NCBI GenBank assembly: GCA_025839675.1
Contig: CP104013.1
Location: forward strand, 2,913,121 to 2,977,120
Source of the DNA: Candidatus Lokiarchaeum ossiferum
Lineage (GTDB): Archaea; Asgardarchaeota; Lokiarchaeia; Sigyniarchaeales; Promethearchaeaceae
DNA length: 64,000 nucleotides
Reading direction: 5' to 3'
Part shown: piece by piece, positions 4,861 to 61,608 of the stretch
Numbering within the stretch: the first letter of the stretch is position 1
Layout: each line of letters begins with the position of its first letter
Position numbers and translations under genes: made by a program
The notes under the pieces: generated by a model
What the model was told of the DNA's origin: nothing
What the model saw: the letters and a program-made list of their open reading frames with translations, nothing else
Database searches by the model: none

Positions 4861-5523
4861 ATGCCGGATCTGTCGAATTTATTGGCGAAAACGACAAGAC
4901 TCAAAGATCGCATGGAAATGGACCATATTTCCCTCATTGAAGAAGATCTGAAATCGATTTTCATAGAATTGAAAGAATTAATATCTCCGAGTGATTTAGA
5001 TCTTGGGATTTCTGTCATGCAAAATGGTACATTGATGCTAGAACAAAAGATTGAAGAAGTGAAACGTTTCATCAATTATTTAACACAAAAGGATCAAATT
5101 TTTCAATTTATCACTTCAACTGCGACGGATCACCAACTAGCAACTATTTTATCACAAGTATGGCATGAACCCATTCAATTACCCTATTTATCAATGAATT
5201 ATCTCGTTGGAAATTGGGCAAAATTAGTAAGAGATAAAAAAATTCACCACACGAAATCAATTCAAGAGATTTCTCCGATTGAAAAGAAAACAGTGGGGAG
5301 TTTCACAGATTTTAGTGATCCCTTTGAAGAACAAATGTTAAGTTATTTAGATCGAATAAAGCCGATCTTACCTGCCACCATGGATGATATTTTAGGACAT
5401 TTTGATAATCCAGATAAATATTTCGAACAATTTTCATATATCCTTCATCTATTGCAAGAAGGATATCTTTACTTTAAAAAATCGACCCAACAATTTATAA
5501 AAGGTGAAATTCAAACTGAATGA
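4861..5523 (+). CDS. scpA: ScpA-like kleisin (segregation and condensation protein A) candidate
   Basis: 220-aa ORF starting 4 nt after the smc stop and overlapping the next gene (operon). C-terminal winged-helix-like segment 'FEQFSYILHLLQEGYLYF' resembles the ScpA C-terminus. The call rests on position plus weak motif similarity. Confidence 0.45.
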   Translation: MPDLSNLLAKTTRLKDRMEMDHISLIEEDLKSIFIELKELISPSDLDLGISVMQNGTLMLEQKIEEVKRFINYLTQKDQIFQFITSTATDHQLATILSQVWHEPIQLPYLSMNYLVGNWAKLVRDKKIHHTKSIQEISPIEKKTVGSFTDFSDPFEEQMLSYLDRIKPILPATMDDILGHFDNPDKYFEQFSYILHLLQEGYLYFKKSTQQFIKGEIQTE

Positions 5524-7334: not shown

Positions 7335-8441
7335 TTATCTCTTTAAACGTTCAATAATAGCTGAAGTTAATATCAATTCGTATTTTAAAAAGTTATGACC
7401 ACCTCGCTGTGTTACTAACCAGTTTTCTATAGGAATTTCAGAAGCGGTAATGTTTTTTTTAAAGTTTATAGCTGATATTACTTTATCATTGAGAGAGTGG
7501 ATAAGAAAAAGGCTTTTCGCTGCATATTTTTGCCAATCAACGGTGGAAGTAAATTCTTTTTTCTTTTCTAAAATTTGTAATTCGGGAGAAATTTCTTTTT
7601 TTATTTTAGGAAGTGGATTAATAGGAACACCAAAAAAGGTGTATCGAAGCCAAAACCACCAATTTCGTTTGAAAGGAATAGGCGATGAGGGCATAACATC
7701 CGAATAATCTCCAATACATGCCACTGCAACGATCTTCTCGACACTTAATCCTTGAAATAGTAAACCTTGTTTGATTGATGCAACCGAACCTAAGGAAATT
7801 CCAACCAAATATATAGAGCGACCTTTGAATGCCTCATGATCTTGAAGAAAACGAATTATATCACCCAAGTCATGTGTGATTTCAACAAACTGATTATTTT
7901 TTCCTGCTTTACGCGAACCACTGACTCCTCGACAGTCATAAGCAATCACATCATAGCCAGCAAGAGCAATAGGAACTGTATAATGTCGAACATATTTTGA
8001 ATCATCGGAAAATCCATGAGAAAAAATCACAATGGGAGATTTTTGGGAAGTTCCATTCCAATGAAGTAATTCACCATTTAAAAATGACTCAATTTCTAAA
8101 TTTTCAGTAGGCTTTTCCATTTCCCAAGTGAGTGGGAAAAGAAAAGGAGTTATAGTCACATTGGGATGATTTACGTGTTTTCCGTACCATCGAAATTGCC
8201 AAAAATCACGCATTTCAAAATATAATGCCCAACATACCCACCATAGGATAAAAGTGAAGAGAGAAAGCAATAAATCTCCAACAATAGGGCCTTGATTCGA
8301 TTGAAATAACACATAATTTACATAAAAAATGAAACTTGCTAGGATTAAACCAAGAATAAATAACAAATAATGTTTAGGTCGTATGATCATGATTTTCTTC
8401 CTAAGATAAATTTCTTCCCAATGTCTCTTTAAATTTTGCAA
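7335..8441 (-). CDS. membrane-anchored alpha/beta-fold hydrolase
   Basis: 368 aa. Two N-terminal TM helices, then 'IFSHGFSDDS' (oxyanion HG) and nucleophile elbow 'VGISLGSVAS' (GxSxG). Its start overlaps the stop of the upstream methyltransferase-like gene by 41 nt. Confidence 0.7.
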   Translation of the reverse strand: MQNLKRHWEEIYLRKKIMIIRPKHYLLFILGLILASFIFYVNYVLFQSNQGPIVGDLLLSLFTFILWWVCWALYFEMRDFWQFRWYGKHVNHPNVTITPFLFPLTWEMEKPTENLEIESFLNGELLHWNGTSQKSPIVIFSHGFSDDSKYVRHYTVPIALAGYDVIAYDCRGVSGSRKAGKNNQFVEITHDLGDIIRFLQDHEAFKGRSIYLVGISLGSVASIKQGLLFQGLSVEKIVAVACIGDYSDVMPSSPIPFKRNWWFWLRYTFFGVPINPLPKIKKEISPELQILEKKKEFTSTVDWQKYAAKSLFLIHSLNDKVISAINFKKNITASEIPIENWLVTQRGGHNFLKYELILTSAIIERLKR

Positions 8442-11403
8442 ATTGATCGGATGATAGGGGGAAAGACTTCTTATTAGAGAACAAAGTAAAATAATAATCT
8501 TGATCTTGAGGACATAATTTACTTCCCCCCCGTATTGTTGGTTCCCATGATAATATAGTAGTTATTAATTTTTGTGGGGCTTGATAGATAACACCAAGTA
8601 AAATATCACAAATATCCAGAATAATTTTAATTTCGGAAGAATTAAACCGATTATGGCTTGAATCAAAATTTAGAAACAAATTTTTCATCAAACAACTTGC
8701 AAGCTCATCAATTATTTGATTATACAAATCTAACTTCTCAATTAGATTATCAGGGAGGGGAAATGCTCTCCATATATCAGTATTCATATGGCGTCCATCG
8801 CTATAGATTCGATACCATGTATAAAAAAAGGAACTGTTGAATACAAGGAGAAGCCAATTTCTTAAATAAAGATTTGATACAAGAATATTGCTTGCTGCAA
8901 TTTGGGTTCCATAATAAGGAATTTGATCCCAAGCATTGTACCAGTAATTTCCAGATATTCGATACCATATAACTTCTCCTTTATTAATTTTAACTGGATC
9001 CAATTTTTGTTTCAAATCAACAGGTGCCCGTAATAGTATAGGAGCAGAAAGAATATCACCAAGTACCACATAACGACTGGTGTGAACAGAATTTTTGGAT
9101 GAACTATACGACTGGAATAAAAAAAGCATAGATTGAATTACAGGATCCCCACATTTCGGTAGACGGTGCTTCTGATTGAAAGATGTAGAAATTATTTTCC
9201 CTAACAAGAAATCATTGGCTTTTAGATAGGAAAGATGATCTAAGGAAGGTTTCTTTCTATACATTGAGGTGGTATAGACAGGATAAAAGTGATTAGAACT
9301 ATCTTTAGTATTCTTACAAGGATCAACTTTGAAAAGACCTTGAAGTAACGAAATCGATTGGGTCATCCCTTCAAAAAAACGACATTTATCCCGGTCAAAA
9401 GACGCAATCAATGAGACTTTATATGTTGAAGCAAGTTTTGCGCGAGTTTGTGAGAGATCTTTGCTAAAACAGAGGACATATGAAGTGATAAAATTCAGAA
9501 CTCCTTTTTCTCGATTCAAATTTAAGGCTCGTTCGATAAATACAGAAGAAATTTCTTTTGGGAAAGAAGCATATTGAGAAACGAAATGTTTTTCTTTGGG
9601 AGAAAGCAAATTTCCATAGGGAGGATTACCTAAAATGACATGAAATCCAGGAGAAACACTATAGTTATTGGAAAATGTATGGGATAAATTATTCGTCTTT
9701 CTGTTAGTTGAACTAGGTTGAGGAGGGCGAAGAAATATTTCCGGAAATTCTATCAACCAATGAAATAATTCTTGATTGTTTTCATCGGATTTGTTTTTTG
9801 AAGGAATATGATACAACAAATTGCATAAATTCTTTGTGTTATGGTATATTTCCTTATAGTATTTTTCAAGTAAAGAATAATGTTGTGTTCCCACTTCATT
9901 AAGTAAAATTAAGCGTGAATTTAAATTGAGATTTAGAATTTCCCTCATTTCGTCAATTAAATGTGAAATTTTTTCAACCTTGATTATTGAATAAGATTCT
10001 TCATTGCGATGATGAAGGTTAGGATATAACCGAAGAAATTCTTTAGCATATTTTTGGGATTTTAAGTTAATTTTATAAAGTTCTATTGCATTGCGAATAA
10101 TTTGTTTTAGAATCTTGGTAAAATCATCCATAATTAAAGAATTAAATGTGAATGAATCTTTCTCTTCAATTTTATTTTGAAGTTCTTCTATACTTAAAAT
10201 TCCTGTTAACGAATTTCCCCTTCTAATATTAAGCTTTACTGGAACGAGACCTTCGATTTTAACAAATTTGTACATTTTTGAAGAGATTAAAGTCATAAAA
10301 CACCTTAACTTTGCAATAATTACAGCTTCAGGGTTGATATCCACCCCGTAGATCTGTTTTGGAAGCAAAATGTTTAGGGATATAATAAATTGGAACTGTT
10401 TCAATGAGGGAAAATCGGTGAAATATGGCTGAAATAAGGATTGTGATAATAAAAACGACTTTACTTTTTCAGATGATTGAATCTTGGCAAGATTCCACCA
10501 AAATTCATAAATCTCTTGAAGCTTTTTAATAGCACCTATCAAAAAATGACCTGAACCCATGGCGGGATCTAGTATCCGAAGAGAGGTCAGAACATAATAG
10601 AGAGAAATAAGCCAATTTTCTTGTTCTTTGAAACTTAATGAATCGTATTCAATTTGAAGAAGCTGCAAAATTGAATGAGACATATTAAAAGGAAAAGGAT
10701 CTTGAACAATAGAGTTCTTAAAAATTTGATAAAATGATAATTGATGAAAAATAGCTTTTTTTGCTAAAAACTGAGTTATATTTTGGGGAGTGTAAAAAGC
10801 ACCGGTAGAAGCACGAGTTTTTTCAGACATAAGATGCTCATACAGAGCACCTATTGTATATTCAGTGATTTTCCCAATATTCGCTTCATATAATTGAAAA
10901 CAATTTACTAAGGGAAGTGTATCAGGAAGACTGGAAGCCAAACCACGCAAAGATCCAAATTTGATATTCTTGCTATTGAAATTTTCACAAAAATAGCCAT
11001 TGTCTCCAAAAGCATATTGAATAAAGCCTCCCCAATCATTATTGCGAATGTTCATTTGTAAAGGTTGAAAGGGGAAGAATTCTTGCCAATCGGCTTCAAT
11101 TTTATGCGAAACAAAAATAGAATTAAAAATGTGAGTTAAAATCGTGCAATATTGCATGTTAGGGGGGCTATGATTTGAAAGATATGCTTCCATTTTAGGA
11201 TCACAAGAAGAAGAGAGCTTAACCATCCATTGTGGGTGTGAAAAAAAACTTTCTTGATCCAAACGCCAAACCCACATCATTAATAAAATAAACTGATCGA
11301 TATTTTTTGAAGTAACTGAATAAAGAGCAAGCGATTGCAAATATTTTTTGGTCTTCTGAAAGAGAACTAAAAAAAAGCGGATAGAAGTAATTTTATTCTT
11401 CAA
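8401..11403 (-). CDS. gamma-class N6-adenine DNA methyltransferase-like protein (Eco57I/MmeI/PglX-like MTase core, large insertion, C-terminal TRD-like region)
   Basis: 1000 aa. Motif X 'GAFYTPQNITQFLAK', motif I 'LDPAMGSGHFLIGA' and motif IV 'VILGNPPYGNLL' are present, with about 320 aa inserted between motifs I and IV. A roughly 400-aa C-terminal region is TRD-like. No obvious PD-(D/E)xK nuclease motif was seen in the roughly 200-aa N-terminus. Confidence 0.75.
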   Translation of the reverse strand: MKNKITSIRFFLVLFQKTKKYLQSLALYSVTSKNIDQFILLMMWVWRLDQESFFSHPQWMVKLSSSCDPKMEAYLSNHSPPNMQYCTILTHIFNSIFVSHKIEADWQEFFPFQPLQMNIRNNDWGGFIQYAFGDNGYFCENFNSKNIKFGSLRGLASSLPDTLPLVNCFQLYEANIGKITEYTIGALYEHLMSEKTRASTGAFYTPQNITQFLAKKAIFHQLSFYQIFKNSIVQDPFPFNMSHSILQLLQIEYDSLSFKEQENWLISLYYVLTSLRILDPAMGSGHFLIGAIKKLQEIYEFWWNLAKIQSSEKVKSFLLSQSLFQPYFTDFPSLKQFQFIISLNILLPKQIYGVDINPEAVIIAKLRCFMTLISSKMYKFVKIEGLVPVKLNIRRGNSLTGILSIEELQNKIEEKDSFTFNSLIMDDFTKILKQIIRNAIELYKINLKSQKYAKEFLRLYPNLHHRNEESYSIIKVEKISHLIDEMREILNLNLNSRLILLNEVGTQHYSLLEKYYKEIYHNTKNLCNLLYHIPSKNKSDENNQELFHWLIEFPEIFLRPPQPSSTNRKTNNLSHTFSNNYSVSPGFHVILGNPPYGNLLSPKEKHFVSQYASFPKEISSVFIERALNLNREKGVLNFITSYVLCFSKDLSQTRAKLASTYKVSLIASFDRDKCRFFEGMTQSISLLQGLFKVDPCKNTKDSSNHFYPVYTTSMYRKKPSLDHLSYLKANDFLLGKIISTSFNQKHRLPKCGDPVIQSMLFLFQSYSSSKNSVHTSRYVVLGDILSAPILLRAPVDLKQKLDPVKINKGEVIWYRISGNYWYNAWDQIPYYGTQIAASNILVSNLYLRNWLLLVFNSSFFYTWYRIYSDGRHMNTDIWRAFPLPDNLIEKLDLYNQIIDELASCLMKNLFLNFDSSHNRFNSSEIKIILDICDILLGVIYQAPQKLITTILSWEPTIRGGSKLCPQDQDYYFTLFSNKKSFPLSSDQFAKFKETLGRNLS

Positions 11404-32567: not shown

Positions 32568-33434
32568 GTGTTCAAGAAAATGGCATCAGAATTAAATAAA
32601 AAAAATAAAAAAAAAATGAGCCCAATTTCGTTGTTCTTCCTGCTCAGTTATACTCTCTTTTGGGGATATTTAGTTGTTGCATTTGCAATTATTACGATCC
32701 TTTCTTTAGATCCGGCGAATCTTCCGGTTTTTGCCGCAGAAATGTTAGGCATTGTCGGATCATATGCTCCAAGCGTCGCGGCTATCATAGTATTGCTTCA
32801 ATATAATGATAAACAGGCAATAAAAGCGCTATTGAAACAATATATAAACTTCAAGGCTTCGTGGAAGTTATACTTACTGGGATTATTACCAATAGTTGTG
32901 GCATTCATCAGTGCATTAATTGGGAGAATTTTCATTTCTAATCCACCTGAAATCGTAATGTTATCCTCATTTGCTCCCGCCATCTTTGTTACTCTGTTGC
33001 TCGATGTTGCTAAGGGTCCTATTGGTGAGCAAGCAGGTTGGCGTGGCTTCGGATATGCAAAATTAATGGAAAAGCAAAGTTTCTTGAAAACTGGTTTGAT
33101 AATTGGTTTTTTCTGGGCTTTTTGGCACGCACCTCTATGGTTGATGAATGCCTGGTCCATCGGAGAGGTTCTTGGTTTTATCCTTACCGCGGTTGCTACA
33201 ACACTCTTCATGAATTGGATGCGGTTTAAAAACCAAAAATCGTTGATACCTGTGGTGCTGTTTCATTTATCCATGAATTTTGGCTTGCAATTGGTGACCG
33301 ATATTGGGTTCAACTTGATTTCTTTGCGTGTTTTGCTTCCGATATACGGAGTAGTGTTTGTTATTTTGGCAACATTATTCTACGCATCAAATAAATCTCA
33401 GCTAATTAACTCTTCTCATTCAAAAATTGAGTAA
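32568..33434 (+). CDS. CPBP-family intramembrane metalloprotease (CAAX protease / Abi-like)
   Basis: 288 aa, polytopic. Motif 1 'GPIGEQAGWRGFG' (EExxxR-like) and motif 2 'FWAFWHAP' (FxxxH), then 'VLFHLSMN' (HxxxN). Confidence 0.7.
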   Translation: MFKKMASELNKKNKKKMSPISLFFLLSYTLFWGYLVVAFAIITILSLDPANLPVFAAEMLGIVGSYAPSVAAIIVLLQYNDKQAIKALLKQYINFKASWKLYLLGLLPIVVAFISALIGRIFISNPPEIVMLSSFAPAIFVTLLLDVAKGPIGEQAGWRGFGYAKLMEKQSFLKTGLIIGFFWAFWHAPLWLMNAWSIGEVLGFILTAVATTLFMNWMRFKNQKSLIPVVLFHLSMNFGLQLVTDIGFNLISLRVLLPIYGVVFVILATLFYASNKSQLINSSHSKIE

Positions 33435-41145: not shown

Positions 41146-42099
41146 ATGATAATGGTTACAATAGCAGATGGAAGATATTCTCTTCCCAGTTCTTACCTTT
41201 ATTCCAAAACCCAGCATGTTTTCTTGGATAAAGTGAAAAAAATTTGTGGTTTAGATCAAATCGGCTATGCTTTTCTTAAAAAGCCAACAGAAATGCAAAT
41301 ACTAGTTGATAAGGAAGTAAAGGTGGGAGAACCCTTTGTTGCAATAACAACGGATAGAGGGATTTCAACCTTAAATTCACCCTGTTCGGGCATATTGAAG
41401 ACAAAGCATGATGATGCTTTGGAAAAAATGGAAAATGATACCTATGAATATGGTATTCTTGAGTTTGAAGAAATAACTGAAATTGATACTGCATTAATTA
41501 CTGGAGCAGACATTGAACCTTGGGCTAATCATGAGGTGCGGTCATTATTAAAAAATGAATATAGCTTCAAGGTAATTTTAACCGGAGATTCAGCAGTTGG
41601 AAAGACGGCCATTAAAGTCCGCTTTACAGATGACTATTTTAAACAAGACTTAAAGACAACTTTGGGAGTCGATTTTGGTTCAAAAGAATTGAAGTGCGAA
41701 TATTTAACAGAAGATATTCTATTTTCTGGGGTGTATAGATTTACTTCAAAAATGAACGTGTGGGATGCTGCAGGGCAAAGTCATTATGACAAAATTCGAG
41801 GCATGTACTACCGAGATGCTAAAGGAGCACTTCTGGTGTATGATGTGAACAATCCTGTATCATTTGATAATTTAGATAAATGGATTGAAGAATTAGATGA
41901 AAATTTGGGGCATGTGCCTACTTTACTCATTGGGAATAAAACAGATTTGGAGAGATTGGTACCACTTGAAAAAGCCTTGGAATTTGCGAAAAACCATGGT
42001 TTTCTTTATGCAGAATGTTCAGCAAAAACGGGTGATAAAGTTGAGAATGTTTTTCGGAAGTTAGCCATAGAAATCTACAAAAAAGAAGAAAATTTGTAA
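41146..42099 (+). CDS. Rab/Ras-like small GTPase with roughly 140-aa N-terminal extension domain
   Basis: 317 aa. G1 'GDSAVGKTA', G3 'WDAAGQ', G4 'GNKTDL', G5 'CSAKTG'. The N-terminal roughly 140 aa have no GTPase motifs. Confidence 0.8.
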   Translation: MIMVTIADGRYSLPSSYLYSKTQHVFLDKVKKICGLDQIGYAFLKKPTEMQILVDKEVKVGEPFVAITTDRGISTLNSPCSGILKTKHDDALEKMENDTYEYGILEFEEITEIDTALITGADIEPWANHEVRSLLKNEYSFKVILTGDSAVGKTAIKVRFTDDYFKQDLKTTLGVDFGSKELKCEYLTEDILFSGVYRFTSKMNVWDAAGQSHYDKIRGMYYRDAKGALLVYDVNNPVSFDNLDKWIEELDENLGHVPTLLIGNKTDLERLVPLEKALEFAKNHGFLYAECSAKTGDKVENVFRKLAIEIYKKEENL

Positions 42100-42135: not shown

Positions 42136-42615
42136 CTATATCGCTTTAATGTGTACCAAGTATTTATATAAAAGAGTGTTTAAATCAGGCTCAATTGATT
42201 CGTAAATAGACTTATTTGATCGATTGTGGAGAATTTGATCATGAAATTTAGTATAGAAGAGATCTAATCCCGTTTCATAGAAAGTTGAAATGTGATCTTT
42301 TATAATATTTGGTCGAAACATCATTGTCAGAATTAATCCATGTTTCGCAACAATATTCATCTCAATGTTCAAACCTTCGATTAGGATACGTTGGATTTTT
42401 CCAACATTTTCTTCCCCAAATACATTTAACGCAGCTATGAAATTACTCATCAAAGGAATTTTTATATCAAAATCATCTGTAAAGGATTTTGAATATAAAA
42501 TGTCACCGCCTTCACGTGCAATAAATATTCCAATTATGTATTTTTTCAATATTTTATGAAATTTAGAATTTTCAGATAGATTTGTCATTGAAGATGAACA
42601 TGTCGATTTATCCAT
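42136..42615 (-). CDS. roadblock/LC7-like (MglB-like) small protein, paralog A
   Basis: 159 aa, about 70% identical to 44552..45070 ('GGDILYSKSF...PLMSNFIAALNVFGEENVGKI.RILIEGL.IEMNIVAKHGL.LTMMFRP'). The alternating hydrophobic pattern resembles the roadblock fold. It is convergent with and 37 nt from the Rab-like GTPase gene. Confidence 0.45.
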   Translation of the reverse strand: MDKSTCSSSMTNLSENSKFHKILKKYIIGIFIAREGGDILYSKSFTDDFDIKIPLMSNFIAALNVFGEENVGKIQRILIEGLNIEMNIVAKHGLILTMMFRPNIIKDHISTFYETGLDLFYTKFHDQILHNRSNKSIYESIEPDLNTLLYKYLVHIKAI

Positions 42616-42760: not shown

Positions 42761-44389
42761 TCACGAAAGATAACTTCGTTTCCAATCATCAATTCGGACC
42801 AAATTTGTCTTAATAGTCCGCGGACTTAACCATCGCAAGATATTGAGCTTAGAGCCTGCTTTATCATTGGTACCTGATGCACGAGCTCCCCCAAAGGGTT
42901 GTCTGCCGACAATAGCACCAGTAGGTTTATCATTAATGTAAAAATTACCTGCGGCATATCTTAACACTTTCTTACTTAGAGCAATTGCTTCAATATCCGT
43001 TGCAAAAATAGCTCCAGTTAGAGCATATGGAGAAGTTGCATCGCATATATGAAGGATCTGCTCAAATTCGTTTTCAGGATATACATAAACCGTAACAATT
43101 GGACCAAATATTTCTTCTTCCATCAATCGAGCTCGCGAATCTTTGGCTAGAATAACAGTTGGGTCAATGAACCAGCCTTTTGTCTCATCAATCTCTCCTC
43201 CTGTAATTATTTCATAAGATTCAGGATGATTTTTCGCATAGTTTAAATACTCAACAATTTTTCTAAAGGATTTTTCATCAATGATAGAACCACCGGCTAC
43301 TTCCAAGGAGGAAACGTCCCCATATTTGAAATTTGGGAGGGTTTCCAAAATTATTTGCTTGTAAGAAGACCATTGATTCTCTGGAATATAGACTCGGGAG
43401 GCTGCAGAACATTTCTGTCCCTGATACTCAAAACTCCCACGTATTATATTCATAGCAGTATGTTGTAGTGGGGCAGATTGATGAACCATAATAAAATCTT
43501 TCCCACCAGTTTCTCCGACAATACGTGGAAAATTTCTGTAACTCCGCAAATTTAACCCGACTTGTTGCCAAATTTTGATCAAAGTATCATAACTTCCAGT
43601 GAAATGGATTCCTGCGAGATTGGGATTATTTATGACAATTCCAGCATCTTGGCTATCAAACGGAACAAAATTAATAACACCTGGAGGCAATCCAGATTCC
43701 AATAAGACTTCCATGATCTTATAATTGGCAAAAATCACACTTCGAGCAGGTTTCCACAATACCACATTTCCTGCTACAGCAGGTGCTGCCGCAAGATTGC
43801 CACCTATTGAATAAAAATTGAAGGGTGGAATAGCCAGAATAAATCCTTCAAGAGGACGCCATTCAAATTCATTTTCTTCCCCAACATAACTTTTAGGTTG
43901 AATTGCAAACAATTCTTCAAGATATTTGGAGTTATAATTAAGAAAATCAATCATTTCAGCTAAATCAATTTCTGCTTCATAGGGAGTTTTGGATTGGTTT
44001 AACATTATAGCAGCAATATTTTCAATTCGTTTTGGTCCAGCAAGGAGTTCAGCCGCTTTACGAAATATATTCACACGATCACATGCATCTAATTCTGACC
44101 ATTGTTCGTGGGCATCTAATGCTGACGAAATTGCATCTTTCAAGTGTTCTTTAGTTGCTAAATGAGCCTTAGCAAGGATTTGAGAGTGATCATGAGGAGA
44201 AACAATATCAATCACTTTTGAAGACCGTATTTTTTTCCCATTGATAATTAGCGGAATTTCTTCAACATGGTTTTTCATACGTTCGAGTTCTTTAAGGAGC
44301 ATTGAGCGCTCTTTGGAATTTTTTTTATAAGTTGGGATTTGATCAACATCATTTTCTACTATTTGGGGTACACATTCCATACAAAACAC
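42761..44389 (-). CDS. aldehyde dehydrogenase, likely 1-pyrroline-5-carboxylate / glutamate-semialdehyde dehydrogenase type
   Basis: 542 aa. ALDH catalytic Glu motif 'VGETGGKDF' and Cys motif 'GQKCSAASR'. The N-terminal extension and length are typical of RocA/P5CDH-like enzymes. Confidence 0.8.
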   Translation of the reverse strand: MFCMECVPQIVENDVDQIPTYKKNSKERSMLLKELERMKNHVEEIPLIINGKKIRSSKVIDIVSPHDHSQILAKAHLATKEHLKDAISSALDAHEQWSELDACDRVNIFRKAAELLAGPKRIENIAAIMLNQSKTPYEAEIDLAEMIDFLNYNSKYLEELFAIQPKSYVGEENEFEWRPLEGFILAIPPFNFYSIGGNLAAAPAVAGNVVLWKPARSVIFANYKIMEVLLESGLPPGVINFVPFDSQDAGIVINNPNLAGIHFTGSYDTLIKIWQQVGLNLRSYRNFPRIVGETGGKDFIMVHQSAPLQHTAMNIIRGSFEYQGQKCSAASRVYIPENQWSSYKQIILETLPNFKYGDVSSLEVAGGSIIDEKSFRKIVEYLNYAKNHPESYEIITGGEIDETKGWFIDPTVILAKDSRARLMEEEIFGPIVTVYVYPENEFEQILHICDATSPYALTGAIFATDIEAIALSKKVLRYAAGNFYINDKPTGAIVGRQPFGGARASGTNDKAGSKLNILRWLSPRTIKTNLVRIDDWKRSYLS

Positions 44390-44551: not shown

Positions 44552-45070
44552 TTAAAGAGCTTCAATATGCACAAGATATTCAAATAATAACTCGAACATT
44601 TTTGGGTCAAATTGCTCATAAATTGTCTGATTAGTCCGGTTTTGGGCGATTTGTTCTTTAAACTCATCATAAAACATATCCAATCCAATTTCATAATATT
44701 TTGAGATATGATCTTTGACCATATGAGGACGAAACATCATTGTTAGAACCAAGCCATGCTTCGCAACAATATTCATTTCAATATCTAAACCTTCTATTAA
44801 AATACGCTTGATTTTACCGACATTTTCTTCCCCAAATACATTTAGAGCGGCGATAAAATTACTCATTAAAGGAAGTTTTAATCCATCTTGAAATGATTTG
44901 GAATACAAAATATCCCCTCCATCTCGAGCTACAAATATTCCCACAAGATACTTTTCCAAAATTTTTTGAAATTTCACATTTATTGGAACGTAGGGATGAT
45001 GCGAGGACAGAAAAGAAGTTTTTGTATTTTCCATAAAAATCACCTTGGCGATATGATTCGTTTTGATCAA
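44552..45070 (-). CDS. roadblock/LC7-like (MglB-like) small protein, paralog B
   Basis: 172 aa. Near-identical core to 42136..42615 (see that entry). Confidence 0.45.
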   Translation of the reverse strand: MIKTNHIAKVIFMENTKTSFLSSHHPYVPINVKFQKILEKYLVGIFVARDGGDILYSKSFQDGLKLPLMSNFIAALNVFGEENVGKIKRILIEGLDIEMNIVAKHGLVLTMMFRPHMVKDHISKYYEIGLDMFYDEFKEQIAQNRTNQTIYEQFDPKMFELLFEYLVHIEAL

Positions 45071-58645: not shown

Positions 58646-59323
58646 TCAATTATCTGGTATCTCATCAAGCATTTTTTGGGAACATTCAGGACATAATCCA
58701 TGAGTAAATTCAGTACCTTTGCTCATGCGAAAATAATCATCTACTGGGAGCCAAGAACCTTCTTCCGAATGGATTTTTTTACATGAAGAACATATTGGAA
58801 GAATTGATTCGAGGGTGTGAATTTTCATTAAAGCTTCCTGAAGATCATTATTTCGAAAAATTAATTCTAAATCCGTTTCAATGACTTTCTGAAAGCTTCC
58901 AACGAGTTTATTATAATTATCTGTATAAGCATTCGGTTTTGAATCCAAAACACAGACGGTTCCAAAGATTTCACCGTTTGGCCAACTAATCGGAAATCCA
59001 AGATAAGAAATCATACCGAGTTTTATATCCGGATTCTGATTCCATTCTGGATCGTTTAAAGCATCTTGAACAATTAAGGATCGTTGGGATTGCATCACGG
59101 TGGTGCAATAGAGTCCACTTAATTTCGCCTTTTCTCCAACTTCATAGGGATTTCCTTGTGTGTTACTCGAAACAAAGACTTCTATATTTGGAGGAGAGAC
59201 ACGCATAATTAACCCAGAGGGGACATTGATAATTTCCGCCATGATATTAACAATTTCTTGCCAATTTTTAATAAATTTATCTGGAATTGAAGTAGAATTG
59301 GTGGAAATATCAAAATTTTGCAT
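58646..59323 (-). CDS. GAF-like sensor domain protein with C-terminal Cys-rich zinc-ribbon-like module
   Basis: 225 aa. N-terminal roughly 170 aa are GAF/PAS-like. The C-terminus is 'CSSCKKIHSEEGSWLPVDDYFRMSKGTEFTHGLCPEC' (C-x2-C-KKI...W...HG-x-CP-x-C). Confidence 0.5.
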   Translation of the reverse strand: MQNFDISTNSTSIPDKFIKNWQEIVNIMAEIINVPSGLIMRVSPPNIEVFVSSNTQGNPYEVGEKAKLSGLYCTTVMQSQRSLIVQDALNDPEWNQNPDIKLGMISYLGFPISWPNGEIFGTVCVLDSKPNAYTDNYNKLVGSFQKVIETDLELIFRNNDLQEALMKIHTLESILPICSSCKKIHSEEGSWLPVDDYFRMSKGTEFTHGLCPECSQKMLDEIPDN

Positions 59324-59522: not shown

Positions 59523-60617
59523 TTGAAACAGATTGAGAAGTGGATGGCAATTCAAATATATGTATTCCTCAGGATGAGCTTAAACGGAGTTTTGTTCATT
59601 CTTTTTATAATATTTCTGTATAAAGCAATACGAAGGAAACAATTTGCCCCATTTTTGACTGGAAGCTTTTCTTTAGCTTTGATCGGCAACACTATAATCT
59701 TATTCACAGATCAAATCATTAAAATCAATTTATACGGTCATTTTCTGGTGGCTGTTTCTTTTTCTCTAATTTATCTTCATTGTGTTGCCTTGATCAATTC
59801 CAGGCCAAACATGTTTATCCAGATCTTTTTCATCAGCTTGAATTCAGCCATTTTATTGATCTCTATGTTGAAATCTTTTGATCTGCTTAGCGAAAATATT
59901 GCATCTCAGCTTGTAATGCAAATTTCTTCAACAATAAAAATGGTAGCACTGGTATTTTCTGTTATCATTGAGGTCAAGATATATTCAAACACGAAATTGG
60001 TAACTGTTAAAATAGAATTGATTTCAATTGTCATCTTGCTGATCTATGCAATCAACTTATTTATCCGAGATTTTTTATTTTTTTCAGAATATGCAATGAT
60101 TTTTACCCAAATTTCGTGGTTTTCGGTTTTACTAGGGAGTATCCTATTAATTTGCAACTATATAACGCATGCAAACTACATATACTATCTTCCCTTTCCG
60201 ATTCATAGTATCATTGTATATAATGAAGGCGGAATGTTAACCTATGCTCAAAAATTTAATAATTCGAAATTTACTGATCAACTTCCAGATGCTTTAATTT
60301 CTGGAATATACTCAGCAATATCATCATTAGTTAGAGATACATTGGGAGTAGGTGCTCAGTTGCAACATATTAATGCAGATAAATATCAAATCTATTTCAA
60401 AGAAACTTCTAATTTGAAGGCAACCTTGGCAGTGATAGCCTTAGGGAAATCATTCTTTTTCCAAAAATCACTAAATAAATTCATTGATTCCATCCCTAAT
60501 AGTTTAATTAATGAAATAAATCAACCAGGGGTTGCTTTATCGGATTTTCAGCAAGAAATTGAGGAGTATGTTAAACAGTCTTTTCCTTATATTCAAATTC
60601 TAAATGATTTAGATTAA
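59523..60617 (+). CDS. polytopic membrane protein with C-terminal roadblock/LC7-like domain
   Basis: 364 aa, about 7 TM helices over residues 1-230. The C-terminal 'IVYNEGGMLTYAQKF...LISGIYSAISSLVRDTLGVGAQLQHINADKYQIYFKETSNLKATLAVIA' is collinear with the core of the two small paralogs at 42136 and 44552. Confidence 0.5.
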   Translation: MKQIEKWMAIQIYVFLRMSLNGVLFILFIIFLYKAIRRKQFAPFLTGSFSLALIGNTIILFTDQIIKINLYGHFLVAVSFSLIYLHCVALINSRPNMFIQIFFISLNSAILLISMLKSFDLLSENIASQLVMQISSTIKMVALVFSVIIEVKIYSNTKLVTVKIELISIVILLIYAINLFIRDFLFFSEYAMIFTQISWFSVLLGSILLICNYITHANYIYYLPFPIHSIIVYNEGGMLTYAQKFNNSKFTDQLPDALISGIYSAISSLVRDTLGVGAQLQHINADKYQIYFKETSNLKATLAVIALGKSFFFQKSLNKFIDSIPNSLINEINQPGVALSDFQQEIEEYVKQSFPYIQILNDLD

Positions 60618-60753: not shown

Positions 60754-61608
60754 ATGAAATTGAAAGTTGGTCAAACTATACAAAAAGTGGGAGAAGTGAA
60801 ATCCTCCCATTTTATGAAGATGGTAAATCTCCTCGGGTTTGAACACGTGGAATTTGATCCTACTGTATTCGATGATATTGAGGCAACAATTCCAACCATT
60901 AGAAAACATTCCGTAGTGCTTCATGCCCCCTTCTACTCTTGGTGGGGGTATGATTTGAGTTCCCGGAATCAATCGGAAAAAGTTGAAGCTTATATGAAAA
61001 ATGTGGAGAAGTTTGCATCCCAGTTGAAGGCACATTCAATTGTGGTGCACCCCCCGATGGATCCAGAGGGTGATAAAGTTTTTTTTTTAGAAAATCTGAA
61101 TAGACTCCCTATAACAATTTTCTTAGAGAATCTTCCAGGACAAAAACTCTCTGATTTTGAACGGTGGTATCTTGAAACAAAAGCGAAAACTACGACTCAC
61201 ACAGAAATATGTTTTGATGTACCACACAGTTTTCTAACCCACGGAAGAGAGAATTTATTCAATATTCCCGAATCGTTGATTTCAGACATAAATTACATTC
61301 ACATCTCCGAGTTATCTTCGGAGAAAGATTGCCATTGGCCCTTTGGGACTCCAGGAGGAGAATTACCTTTTGAGAAATTTGTGGATTTTCTACATCGAAT
61401 TGATTTCAATGGAATTATTAATATGGAAATGATGCCAGCAGATTTGCAAGGAATTAATAACCTTATCGATTCATACTTGAAATTAAAGAAACTTGGGACT
61501 AAGTTCCAATATATAATGAAAAAGATACGAGTCACGTTAATCAAACCTATTTTATTGAATAAGCTGCAAGGGGTGCCATTAAAAGCAGAACCTGATAAAC
61601 ATATTTGA
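60754..61608 (+). CDS. sugar-phosphate isomerase/epimerase-like TIM-barrel protein (xylose-isomerase-like fold)
   Basis: 284 aa. 'HAPFYSWWGYDL...AHSIVVHPP' and 'HISE...MEM' are spaced like the metal-ligand His/Glu residues of the AP-endonuclease-2 / xylose-isomerase-like TIM barrel. Weak call. Confidence 0.4.
   Translation: MKLKVGQTIQKVGEVKSSHFMKMVNLLGFEHVEFDPTVFDDIEATIPTIRKHSVVLHAPFYSWWGYDLSSRNQSEKVEAYMKNVEKFASQLKAHSIVVHPPMDPEGDKVFFLENLNRLPITIFLENLPGQKLSDFERWYLETKAKTTTHTEICFDVPHSFLTHGRENLFNIPESLISDINYIHISELSSEKDCHWPFGTPGGELPFEKFVDFLHRIDFNGIINMEMMPADLQGINNLIDSYLKLKKLGTKFQYIMKKIRVTLIKPILLNKLQGVPLKAEPDKHI

Follow-up and report, generated by a model that had tools for sequence, protein, structure and literature searches.

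The subject of this study is a gene in a 64,000-nucleotide window of the Candidatus Lokiarchaeum ossiferum genome (GenBank assembly GCA_025839675.1, contig CP104013.1, positions 2,913,121 to 2,977,120 of the forward strand; coordinates below are those of the window, which has a G+C content of ~33%). Its product is a membrane protein in which a predicted seven-transmembrane (7TM) region is followed by a C-terminal domain modelled as a longin of the TRAPPC1/TRAPPC4 type. The relevant features are collected in Table 1. The open reading frame (ORF) singled out by the original prediction, running from 59523 to 60617 on the plus strand and coding from a TTG start for 364 amino acids (aa), was confirmed to be present. 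Because the first residue of all homologues corresponds to M8 of that ORF, and because the TATA-box-like element TTATATAA lies 23-30 nt upstream of the corresponding ATG, the true start is probably the ATG at 59544, giving a product of 357 aa; the spacing of the element would be compatible with a leaderless or short-leader archaeal transcript. The closest database match is a 357-aa hypothetical protein from the same organism with 98% identity. Residue numbers refer throughout to the 364-aa ORF.

Table 1. Features of the window relevant to the 7TM-longin protein.
Feature	Coordinates	Strand	Remarks
TATA-box-like element TTATATAA	59514..59521	+	About 23-30 nt upstream of ATG 59544; read from the sequence
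7TM-longin coding sequence, probable	59544..60617	+	357 aa from ATG; ORF plus homologue starts
Seven-transmembrane region	59562..60155	+	Residues 14-211; N-terminus predicted outside, short loops
Juxtamembrane linker	60156..60200	+	Residues 212-226; motif NY..(D/N)YxYxLPxPI, including nearly invariant P217
Longin domain, predicted cytoplasmic	60201..60590	+	Residues 227-356, ~130 aa
GAF and zinc-ribbon-like protein	58646-59323	-	Divergent from the 7TM-longin gene; GAF Pfam 3.5e-10; C-terminal CxxC…CxxC
Xylose-isomerase-like TIM barrel	60754-61608	+	Downstream neighbour; AP_endonuc_2, weak CbiR-like match
Ras-family GTPase	41146-42099	+	317 aa; GTPase domain residues 142-311; Pfam Ras 2.1e-46
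Small soluble protein 1	42136..42615	-	159 aa; separate Asgard family, roadblock/longin superfold
Small soluble protein 2	44552..45070	-	172-aa ORF; database protein of 160 aa, 100% identical to NEF87_002493 (Ca. L. ossiferum)

The Membrane Region

Kyte-Doolittle analysis delineated seven hydrophobic segments (residues 14-32, 44-62, 73-91, 98-116, 131-149, 159-177 and 193-211), and the same seven segments recurred across 86 aligned full-length relatives. A full-length AlphaFold2 (AF2) model likewise comprised seven long helices, with predicted local distance difference test (pLDDT) values of mostly 74-94 in the transmembrane (TM) part; the run was based on a 10-sequence alignment and gave pLDDT values <50 in the C-terminal domain, so the model was used for the TM part. 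Hydropathy, modelling and conservation therefore agree with the original description of a polytopic protein of seven helices with a soluble C-terminal domain.

Lysine plus arginine residues per protein, counted over the 86 relatives, numbered 3.5, 1.1 and 2.2 in loops 1-2, 3-4 and 5-6, respectively, as opposed to 0.2-0.8 for the N-terminus and the remaining loops (2-3, 4-5 and 6-7). On the basis of this bias and the positive-inside rule, the predicted topology is N-out/C-in, with a cytoplasmic C-terminal domain. Short loops connect the helices, and an extracellular domain is absent.

No invariant polar residue was found in the TM region of the 86 relatives, the best-conserved positions being a YLHYE motif at the cytoplasmic end of helix 3, the glutamate of which is present in 73% of members, together with P95, G205 and, at the cytoplasmic end of helix 7, N212-Y213. 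In the window protein and its closest relatives the motif reads YLHCV. The arrangement of the helices in the AF2 model, seven TM helices disposed N-out/C-in, is like that of a G protein-coupled receptor (GPCR), but neither the target nor the 86 relatives matched a GPCR Pfam family, and GPCRs were not among the PDB matches of the sequence-profile search. Two candidate assignments were considered and rejected: 7TMR-DISM_7TM (PF07695) scored 11.2 bits (E 0.35) against a gathering score of 29 and did not recur in the relatives, while assignment as a microbial rhodopsin is contradicted by the lack of any lysine in TM7 of the target and by a lysine frequency of <=8% at any TM7 column of the relatives.

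Fold of the C-Terminal Domain

The domain that follows the linker proved to be somewhat larger than the roughly 110 residues originally estimated, and stops 8 residues ahead of the stop codon. AF2 modelling of residues 215-364, deploying as input an alignment of 84 C-terminal domain sequences (A5), gave a mean pLDDT of 86.9 and a predicted template modelling score (pTM) of 0.80. The elements of the model are, in order, b1 (227-234), b2 (239-244), a1 (256-274), b3 (282-285), b4 (288-294), b5 (300-306), a2 (311-323), a3 (326-332) and a4 (343-353), after which comes a conserved FPY (354-356). The resultant order is b-b-a-b-b-b-a-a-a with no helix packed ahead of strand 1, and the shallow full-length model agrees. 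Relative to roadblock domains, longins have lost an N-terminal helix and gained an extra C-terminal helix (PMC10933270), and by that definition the order of elements is therefore a longin arrangement. It departs from the roadblock order a-b-b-a-b-b-b-a at both ends: a non-helical proline-rich linker joins TM7 to b1, and three helices come after b5.

Structural comparison gave a concordant result. The solved structures closest to the domain model were longins, Foldseek TM-scores being 0.54-0.63 against TRAPPC1/TRAPPC4 and 0.36-0.41 (root-mean-square deviation ~9 Å) against MglB and a Streptomyces roadblock protein. At the level of sequence, the top three PDB matches of the A5 profile were Trs23 (E 0.0011), TRAPPC1 (0.019) and TRAPPC2 (0.039); nothing useful was recovered when the PDB was searched with a shallow profile or with the family of the two small soluble proteins listed in Table 1. 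Among the 86 relatives, 12 weakly matched Pfam Sybindin (best E 2.8e-4) and four matched Fuz_longin_1. By way of contrast, Robl_LC7 (PF03259) was matched by none of the target, the two small proteins, the 32 members of the small-protein family or the 86 relatives. Scans of the target against Pfam and NCBIfam returned no match, and Sybindin (PF04099) was not reached by the window protein even at E <= 10. Since the Pfam matches of the relatives are sub-threshold and the window protein has none, the domain is not termed a member of the Sybindin family; as judged from the model and from remote homology, it is a TRAPPC1/C4-like longin. The designation roadblock-like in the original prediction consequently holds at the level of the common roadblock/longin superfold, within which the order of elements, the Foldseek comparison, the TRAPP matches and the complete lack of Robl_LC7 matches all indicate a longin.

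Remote Homology to Two Small Soluble Proteins

The two small soluble proteins, which share 67% identity, had been regarded as paralogues of the C-terminal domain, collinear with it and together forming a family of which the domain would be the third member. BLASTP comparison of the target with each small protein was not significant (E > 2), and a shallow 8-sequence profile aligned with the small-protein family over 42 columns only (E 0.025, probability 2%). When A5 was compared by hhalign with a 32-sequence alignment of the small-protein family (A2), 116 collinear columns were aligned from strand 1 to the last helix (E 4.3e-5, probability 69%), and the aligned blocks contained exactly the short strings quoted in the original prediction, whose presence in the target and the two small proteins was confirmed. 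Against the observed score of 34.9, 100 column shuffles of A2 scored 13.2±2.6 (maximum 21.4), a separation of about 8 standard deviations (SD), and a reversed-alignment control scored 12.6.

The proposed collinearity was thus upheld by deep profiles, though not by pairwise comparison, and the profile evidence indicates that the domain and the small proteins are truly related, as remote homologues rather than close paralogues. A hidden Markov model of either family detected only its own members in the window, and the domain belongs not to the small-protein family but to a separate, larger Asgard-wide family linked to it by profile-profile comparison alone. The small-protein family has one further (third) representative in L. 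ossiferum, NEF87_002034, located elsewhere in the genome. Of the 32 family members, six matched Fuz_longin_1, and one member carries the UniRef label Roadblock/LC7. A 542-aa ORF (42761-44389, minus strand) lies between the two paralogues.

Distribution and Conservation of the Family

When 1.84 billion cluster representatives were searched exhaustively by HMMER for the C-terminal profile, 173 proteins (representatives of 50%-identity clusters) were recovered at E <= 0.001. Nearly all are 350-385 aa long and end with the domain, which comes after ~215 membrane residues; the shorter entries look like fragments derived from short contigs. All members with an organism name are Asgard archaea (Lokiarchaeum, Promethearchaeota, Heimdallarchaeota, Heimdallarchaeaceae, Hodarchaeales, Hodarchaeota and Thorarchaeota); most representatives carry no such name, and the restriction to Asgard is accordingly a pattern seen rather than proof. 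Every named member is annotated as a hypothetical protein. Smaller yields were obtained from a word-indexed homologue search with the deep profile (8 proteins) and from a locus search with a narrower alignment (4 genome loci, all assigned to Promethearchaeota/Promethearchaeati or to an uncultured archaeon).

The nearly invariant positions P217, G230, F347 and P348 all fall within the linker and longin domain, in which a motif, L-x-S-G-x3-A-I-S-x4-E-x-L-G, is found in helix a1. The linker plus longin domain shows a mean pairwise identity of 28.5% and the TM region one of 17.7%, values which indicate that selection is strongest on the former and that the TM bundle evolves faster.

Two further entries may be recorded. 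In P0190, a repeat-rich protein of 3300 aa from a 405 kb JGI contig, the first half of the longin profile was matched weakly four times at residues ~842-919 (E 2.9e-5); the protein may contain several longins, or the matches may be an artefact of repeats or of composition. In a Promethearchaeota metagenome-assembled genome (MAG; locus L004, 3927-5041, coverage 0.93), the ORF of the homologue stops at 4865 while the tblastn match runs on to 5041, which suggests a frameshift or sequencing error.

Genomic Context

The gene order GAF gene, target, TIM-barrel gene is kept in a 75%-identical relative (L006), in which the TIM-barrel gene is followed at 7340-10321 by a gene for a 993-aa PAS-GAF-HisKA-HATPase-receiver hybrid kinase; the equivalent of that kinase gene in the present window would extend past its end. 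Neighbourhoods were compared at L004-L009, and synteny was confined to the 75%-identical relative, the neighbours in more distant Loki, Thor and Heimdall MAGs being unrelated.

The Ras-family GTPase adjoins the small soluble proteins, tail-to-tail with one of them, and has an N-terminal extension of ~135 residues with no Pfam match. Its C-terminus (…KKEENL) is devoid of cysteine, and it therefore has no CAAX-type lipidation signal. An Rce1-like membrane protease of the CAAX prenyl endopeptidase (CPBP) family is coded for at 32568-33434 on the plus strand (Pfam 8.6e-10); this family is widespread among prokaryotes, and alone is no sign of prenylation.

Discussion

Characterised longin and roadblock domains serve as dimeric platforms for Ras-superfamily GTPases, acting as guanine nucleotide exchange factors (GEFs) in TRAPP and Mon1-Ccz1, as GTPase-activating proteins in MglB and FLCN-FNIP, and as scaffolds in Ragulator and SRalpha-SRbeta (PMC10933270). 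By analogy, the longin domain of the 7TM protein may constitute a GTPase platform at the membrane, the likeliest of the readings considered and one to which a probability of about one half is assigned, and the role originally envisaged, that of a membrane-recruitment platform for small GTPases, is a plausible one. Under such a scheme the longin domain would pair with itself or with a soluble or other longin protein, and the resultant pair, permanently anchored by the 7TM bundle, would dock, hold or regulate a small GTPase on the cytoplasmic side of the membrane. The bundle could also act as an intramembrane sensor, its state being relayed to the longin domain via the cytoplasmic ends of helices 3 and 7 and the linker. 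This role is proposed because the TM bundle evolves faster and has neither invariant polar residues nor an extracellular domain, and because the cytoplasmic ends of helices 3 and 7 are conserved beside the conserved linker; the 7TM part may in this respect be likened to the 7TM receptors of bacteria, which carry fused output domains. A more elaborate version, in which a single polypeptide forms a receptor-to-small-GTPase switch, the GPCR-like bundle sensing a signal and the dimeric longin recruiting, or exchanging nucleotide on, an Asgard GTPase, is distinctly doubtful.

A number of considerations weigh against a GTPase platform and against a receptor function. Both GTPase binding and dimerisation are attributed to the 7TM-longin protein by analogy, and some longins, such as those of SNAREs and of AP sigma/mu subunits, work apart from GTPases. 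At E about 1e-3, the sequence resemblance to TRAPP longins is marginal; all matches lie under Pfam thresholds, and the window protein itself matches no Pfam family. A GPCR-like outcome for any N-out seven-helix bundle is weak evidence of receptor function, and the 7TM model was built on a 10-sequence alignment; furthermore, the glutamate of the YLHYE motif is replaced by V88 in the window protein. Fusion to a GTPase is absent from all family members, as is any other added domain. The loci of five relatives revealed no conserved GTPase or longin neighbour, and where the original prediction had envisaged several small GTPases in the window, a phmmer search of all ORFs confirmed one Ras-family GTPase only, 17 kb from the target. 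The missing linkage is nevertheless regarded as uninformative rather than negative, because in MK-D1 GTPase genes generally lie outside operons with roadblock or longin genes (Tran et al., PMC10933270).

The main rival explanation retains the longin but dissociates it from GTPases, the domain being an autoinhibitory or adaptor-binding module for interaction or regulation, comparable to those of longin SNAREs and AP sigma/mu subunits, and the 7TM part being the functional unit, whether transporter, scramblase, enzyme or structural protein. This is possible, if on balance unlikely: a catalytic or transport site would lead one to expect invariant polar or charged residues in the TM region, of which there are none, and that region has diverged faster than the longin. 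The best sequence-level relatives of the longin domain are longins of the TRAPP GEF core, and the related soluble proteins adjoin a Ras GTPase gene. A different possibility is that the domain is a small-molecule sensor from the wider alpha-beta class of PAS, GAF and profilin-like folds, passing the metabolite state of the cytoplasm to the membrane part. This proposal would be in keeping with the classification of longins among GAF/PAS-like folds (De Franceschi 2014, cited in PMC4917890), with the GAF protein coded for by the divergent neighbour and with the PAS-GAF histidine kinase that follows in the syntenic relative; it is considered very improbable.

Two explanations closer to the starting point fared no better. 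That the domain is a roadblock/LC7 (MglB-like) module, a membrane-tethered third paralogue of the small proteins, would accord with the superfold but is disfavoured by the order of elements, the Foldseek scores and the absence of Robl_LC7 matches, and is thought to be very unlikely. That the resemblance to the small proteins arose by chance between AT-rich, compositionally biased proteins might be argued from the failure of BLASTP and from the poor result with the shallow profile (E 0.025, probability 2%). The controls reject it: the deep-profile score lies about 8 SD above 100 column shuffles and far above the reversed control, the alignment is collinear along the whole domain, and both families independently match longin Pfam models, so that this explanation retains next to no credence.

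The 7TM-longin protein departs in several respects from its closest known counterparts. At the core of TRAPP, a Rab1 GEF, the longins TRAPPC1 and TRAPPC4 (yeast Bet5 and Trs23; Sybindin, PF04099) are paired as a heterodimer. Both are soluble and belong, together with Bet3-family partners, to a peripheral complex of several subunits, whereas the target longin is C-terminal on a 7TM protein and matches them in sequence below family thresholds. The tri-longin Rab GEFs (Mon1-Ccz1, Fuzzy-Inturned and HPS1-HPS4; Fuz_longin_1, Intu_longin_1) are soluble proteins with three longins each that rely on lipids or other proteins for their recruitment, while the target has a single, membrane-anchored longin. 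Roadblock/LC7 proteins (MglB, LAMTOR2/3 and the Asgard structures 7yh1, 9jue and 7f8m) possess a helix at the N-terminus and a single one at the C-terminus; in the target the N-terminal helix is missing, there are extra C-terminal helices, and Robl_LC7 is not matched. In longin SNAREs and plant phytolongins (VAMP7, Sec22b, Ykt6) the longin is N-terminal, with a SNARE or PhyL region behind it and then a single tail anchor, an order that is reversed in the target, where seven helices come first and the longin last, hence with no SNARE motif.

The nearest likeness in architecture is to the prokaryotic 7TM receptors (7TMR-DISM; E. coli DgcT and CdgI), which also join an N-out seven-helix bundle to a cytoplasmic signalling domain. 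DgcT and CdgI have been described as GPCR-like (PMC10760455). The AF2 models of these receptors and of the target are alike in resembling GPCR folds, but the outputs of the former are GGDEF, EAL, kinase and similar domains and that of the target is a longin. We know of no description of a longin as the output of a prokaryotic 7TM receptor. GPCRs themselves, and the GPCR-like domain of LYCHOS/GPR155, show no sequence similarity to the target, the model of which derives from a shallow alignment, and GPCRs act on separate heterotrimeric G proteins while the putative GTPase-facing module of the target is fused to the bundle.

As to precedent, the full-text literature searched contained no description of a 7TM-longin protein, although a bare listing in the tables of Klinger 2016 or Liu 2021 is possible; together with the lack of Pfam or NCBIfam matches and the hypothetical annotation of named members, this bears out the initial impression that the architecture is not that of a characterised family. 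Lokiarchaeum has 41 longins and 38 roadblocks, the superfamily comprises 130 asCOGs, and the Asgard longin or roadblock fusions reported are to GTPases, TRAPPC3 and two-component domains (PMC4917890, PMC10933270, bioRxiv 10.1101/2020.10.19.343400). What the present protein offers is a combination of known folds in an undescribed conserved architecture, an unusual and directly membrane-integral form of a GTPase-platform domain.

In eukaryotes, GTPases are placed on membranes by means of CAAX motifs, prenyltransferases and GDP dissociation inhibitors (GDIs). Asgard archaea, which encode dozens of Ras-superfamily GTPases as well as dozens of longin and roadblock proteins, are without all three according to PMC4917890; for lokiarchaeal GTPases the absence of CAAX motifs, and for the genome that of prenyltransferases, is given in Table 1 of that paper. 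Whether and how Asgard GTPases act at membranes is a question in eukaryogenesis for which the 7TM-longin family, a TRAPPC1/C4-like longin built permanently into the membrane across several Asgard lineages, provides a concrete and testable candidate. Should the longin domain prove to be a GTPase platform, it would represent a membrane route for GTPases apparently devoid of lipid anchors; if the 7TM part senses a signal, an archaeon would possess a receptor linked to a regulator of GTPases; and if the complete receptor-to-GTPase switch were to be established, a membrane-integral TRAPP-core-like GEF would be older than eukaryotes.
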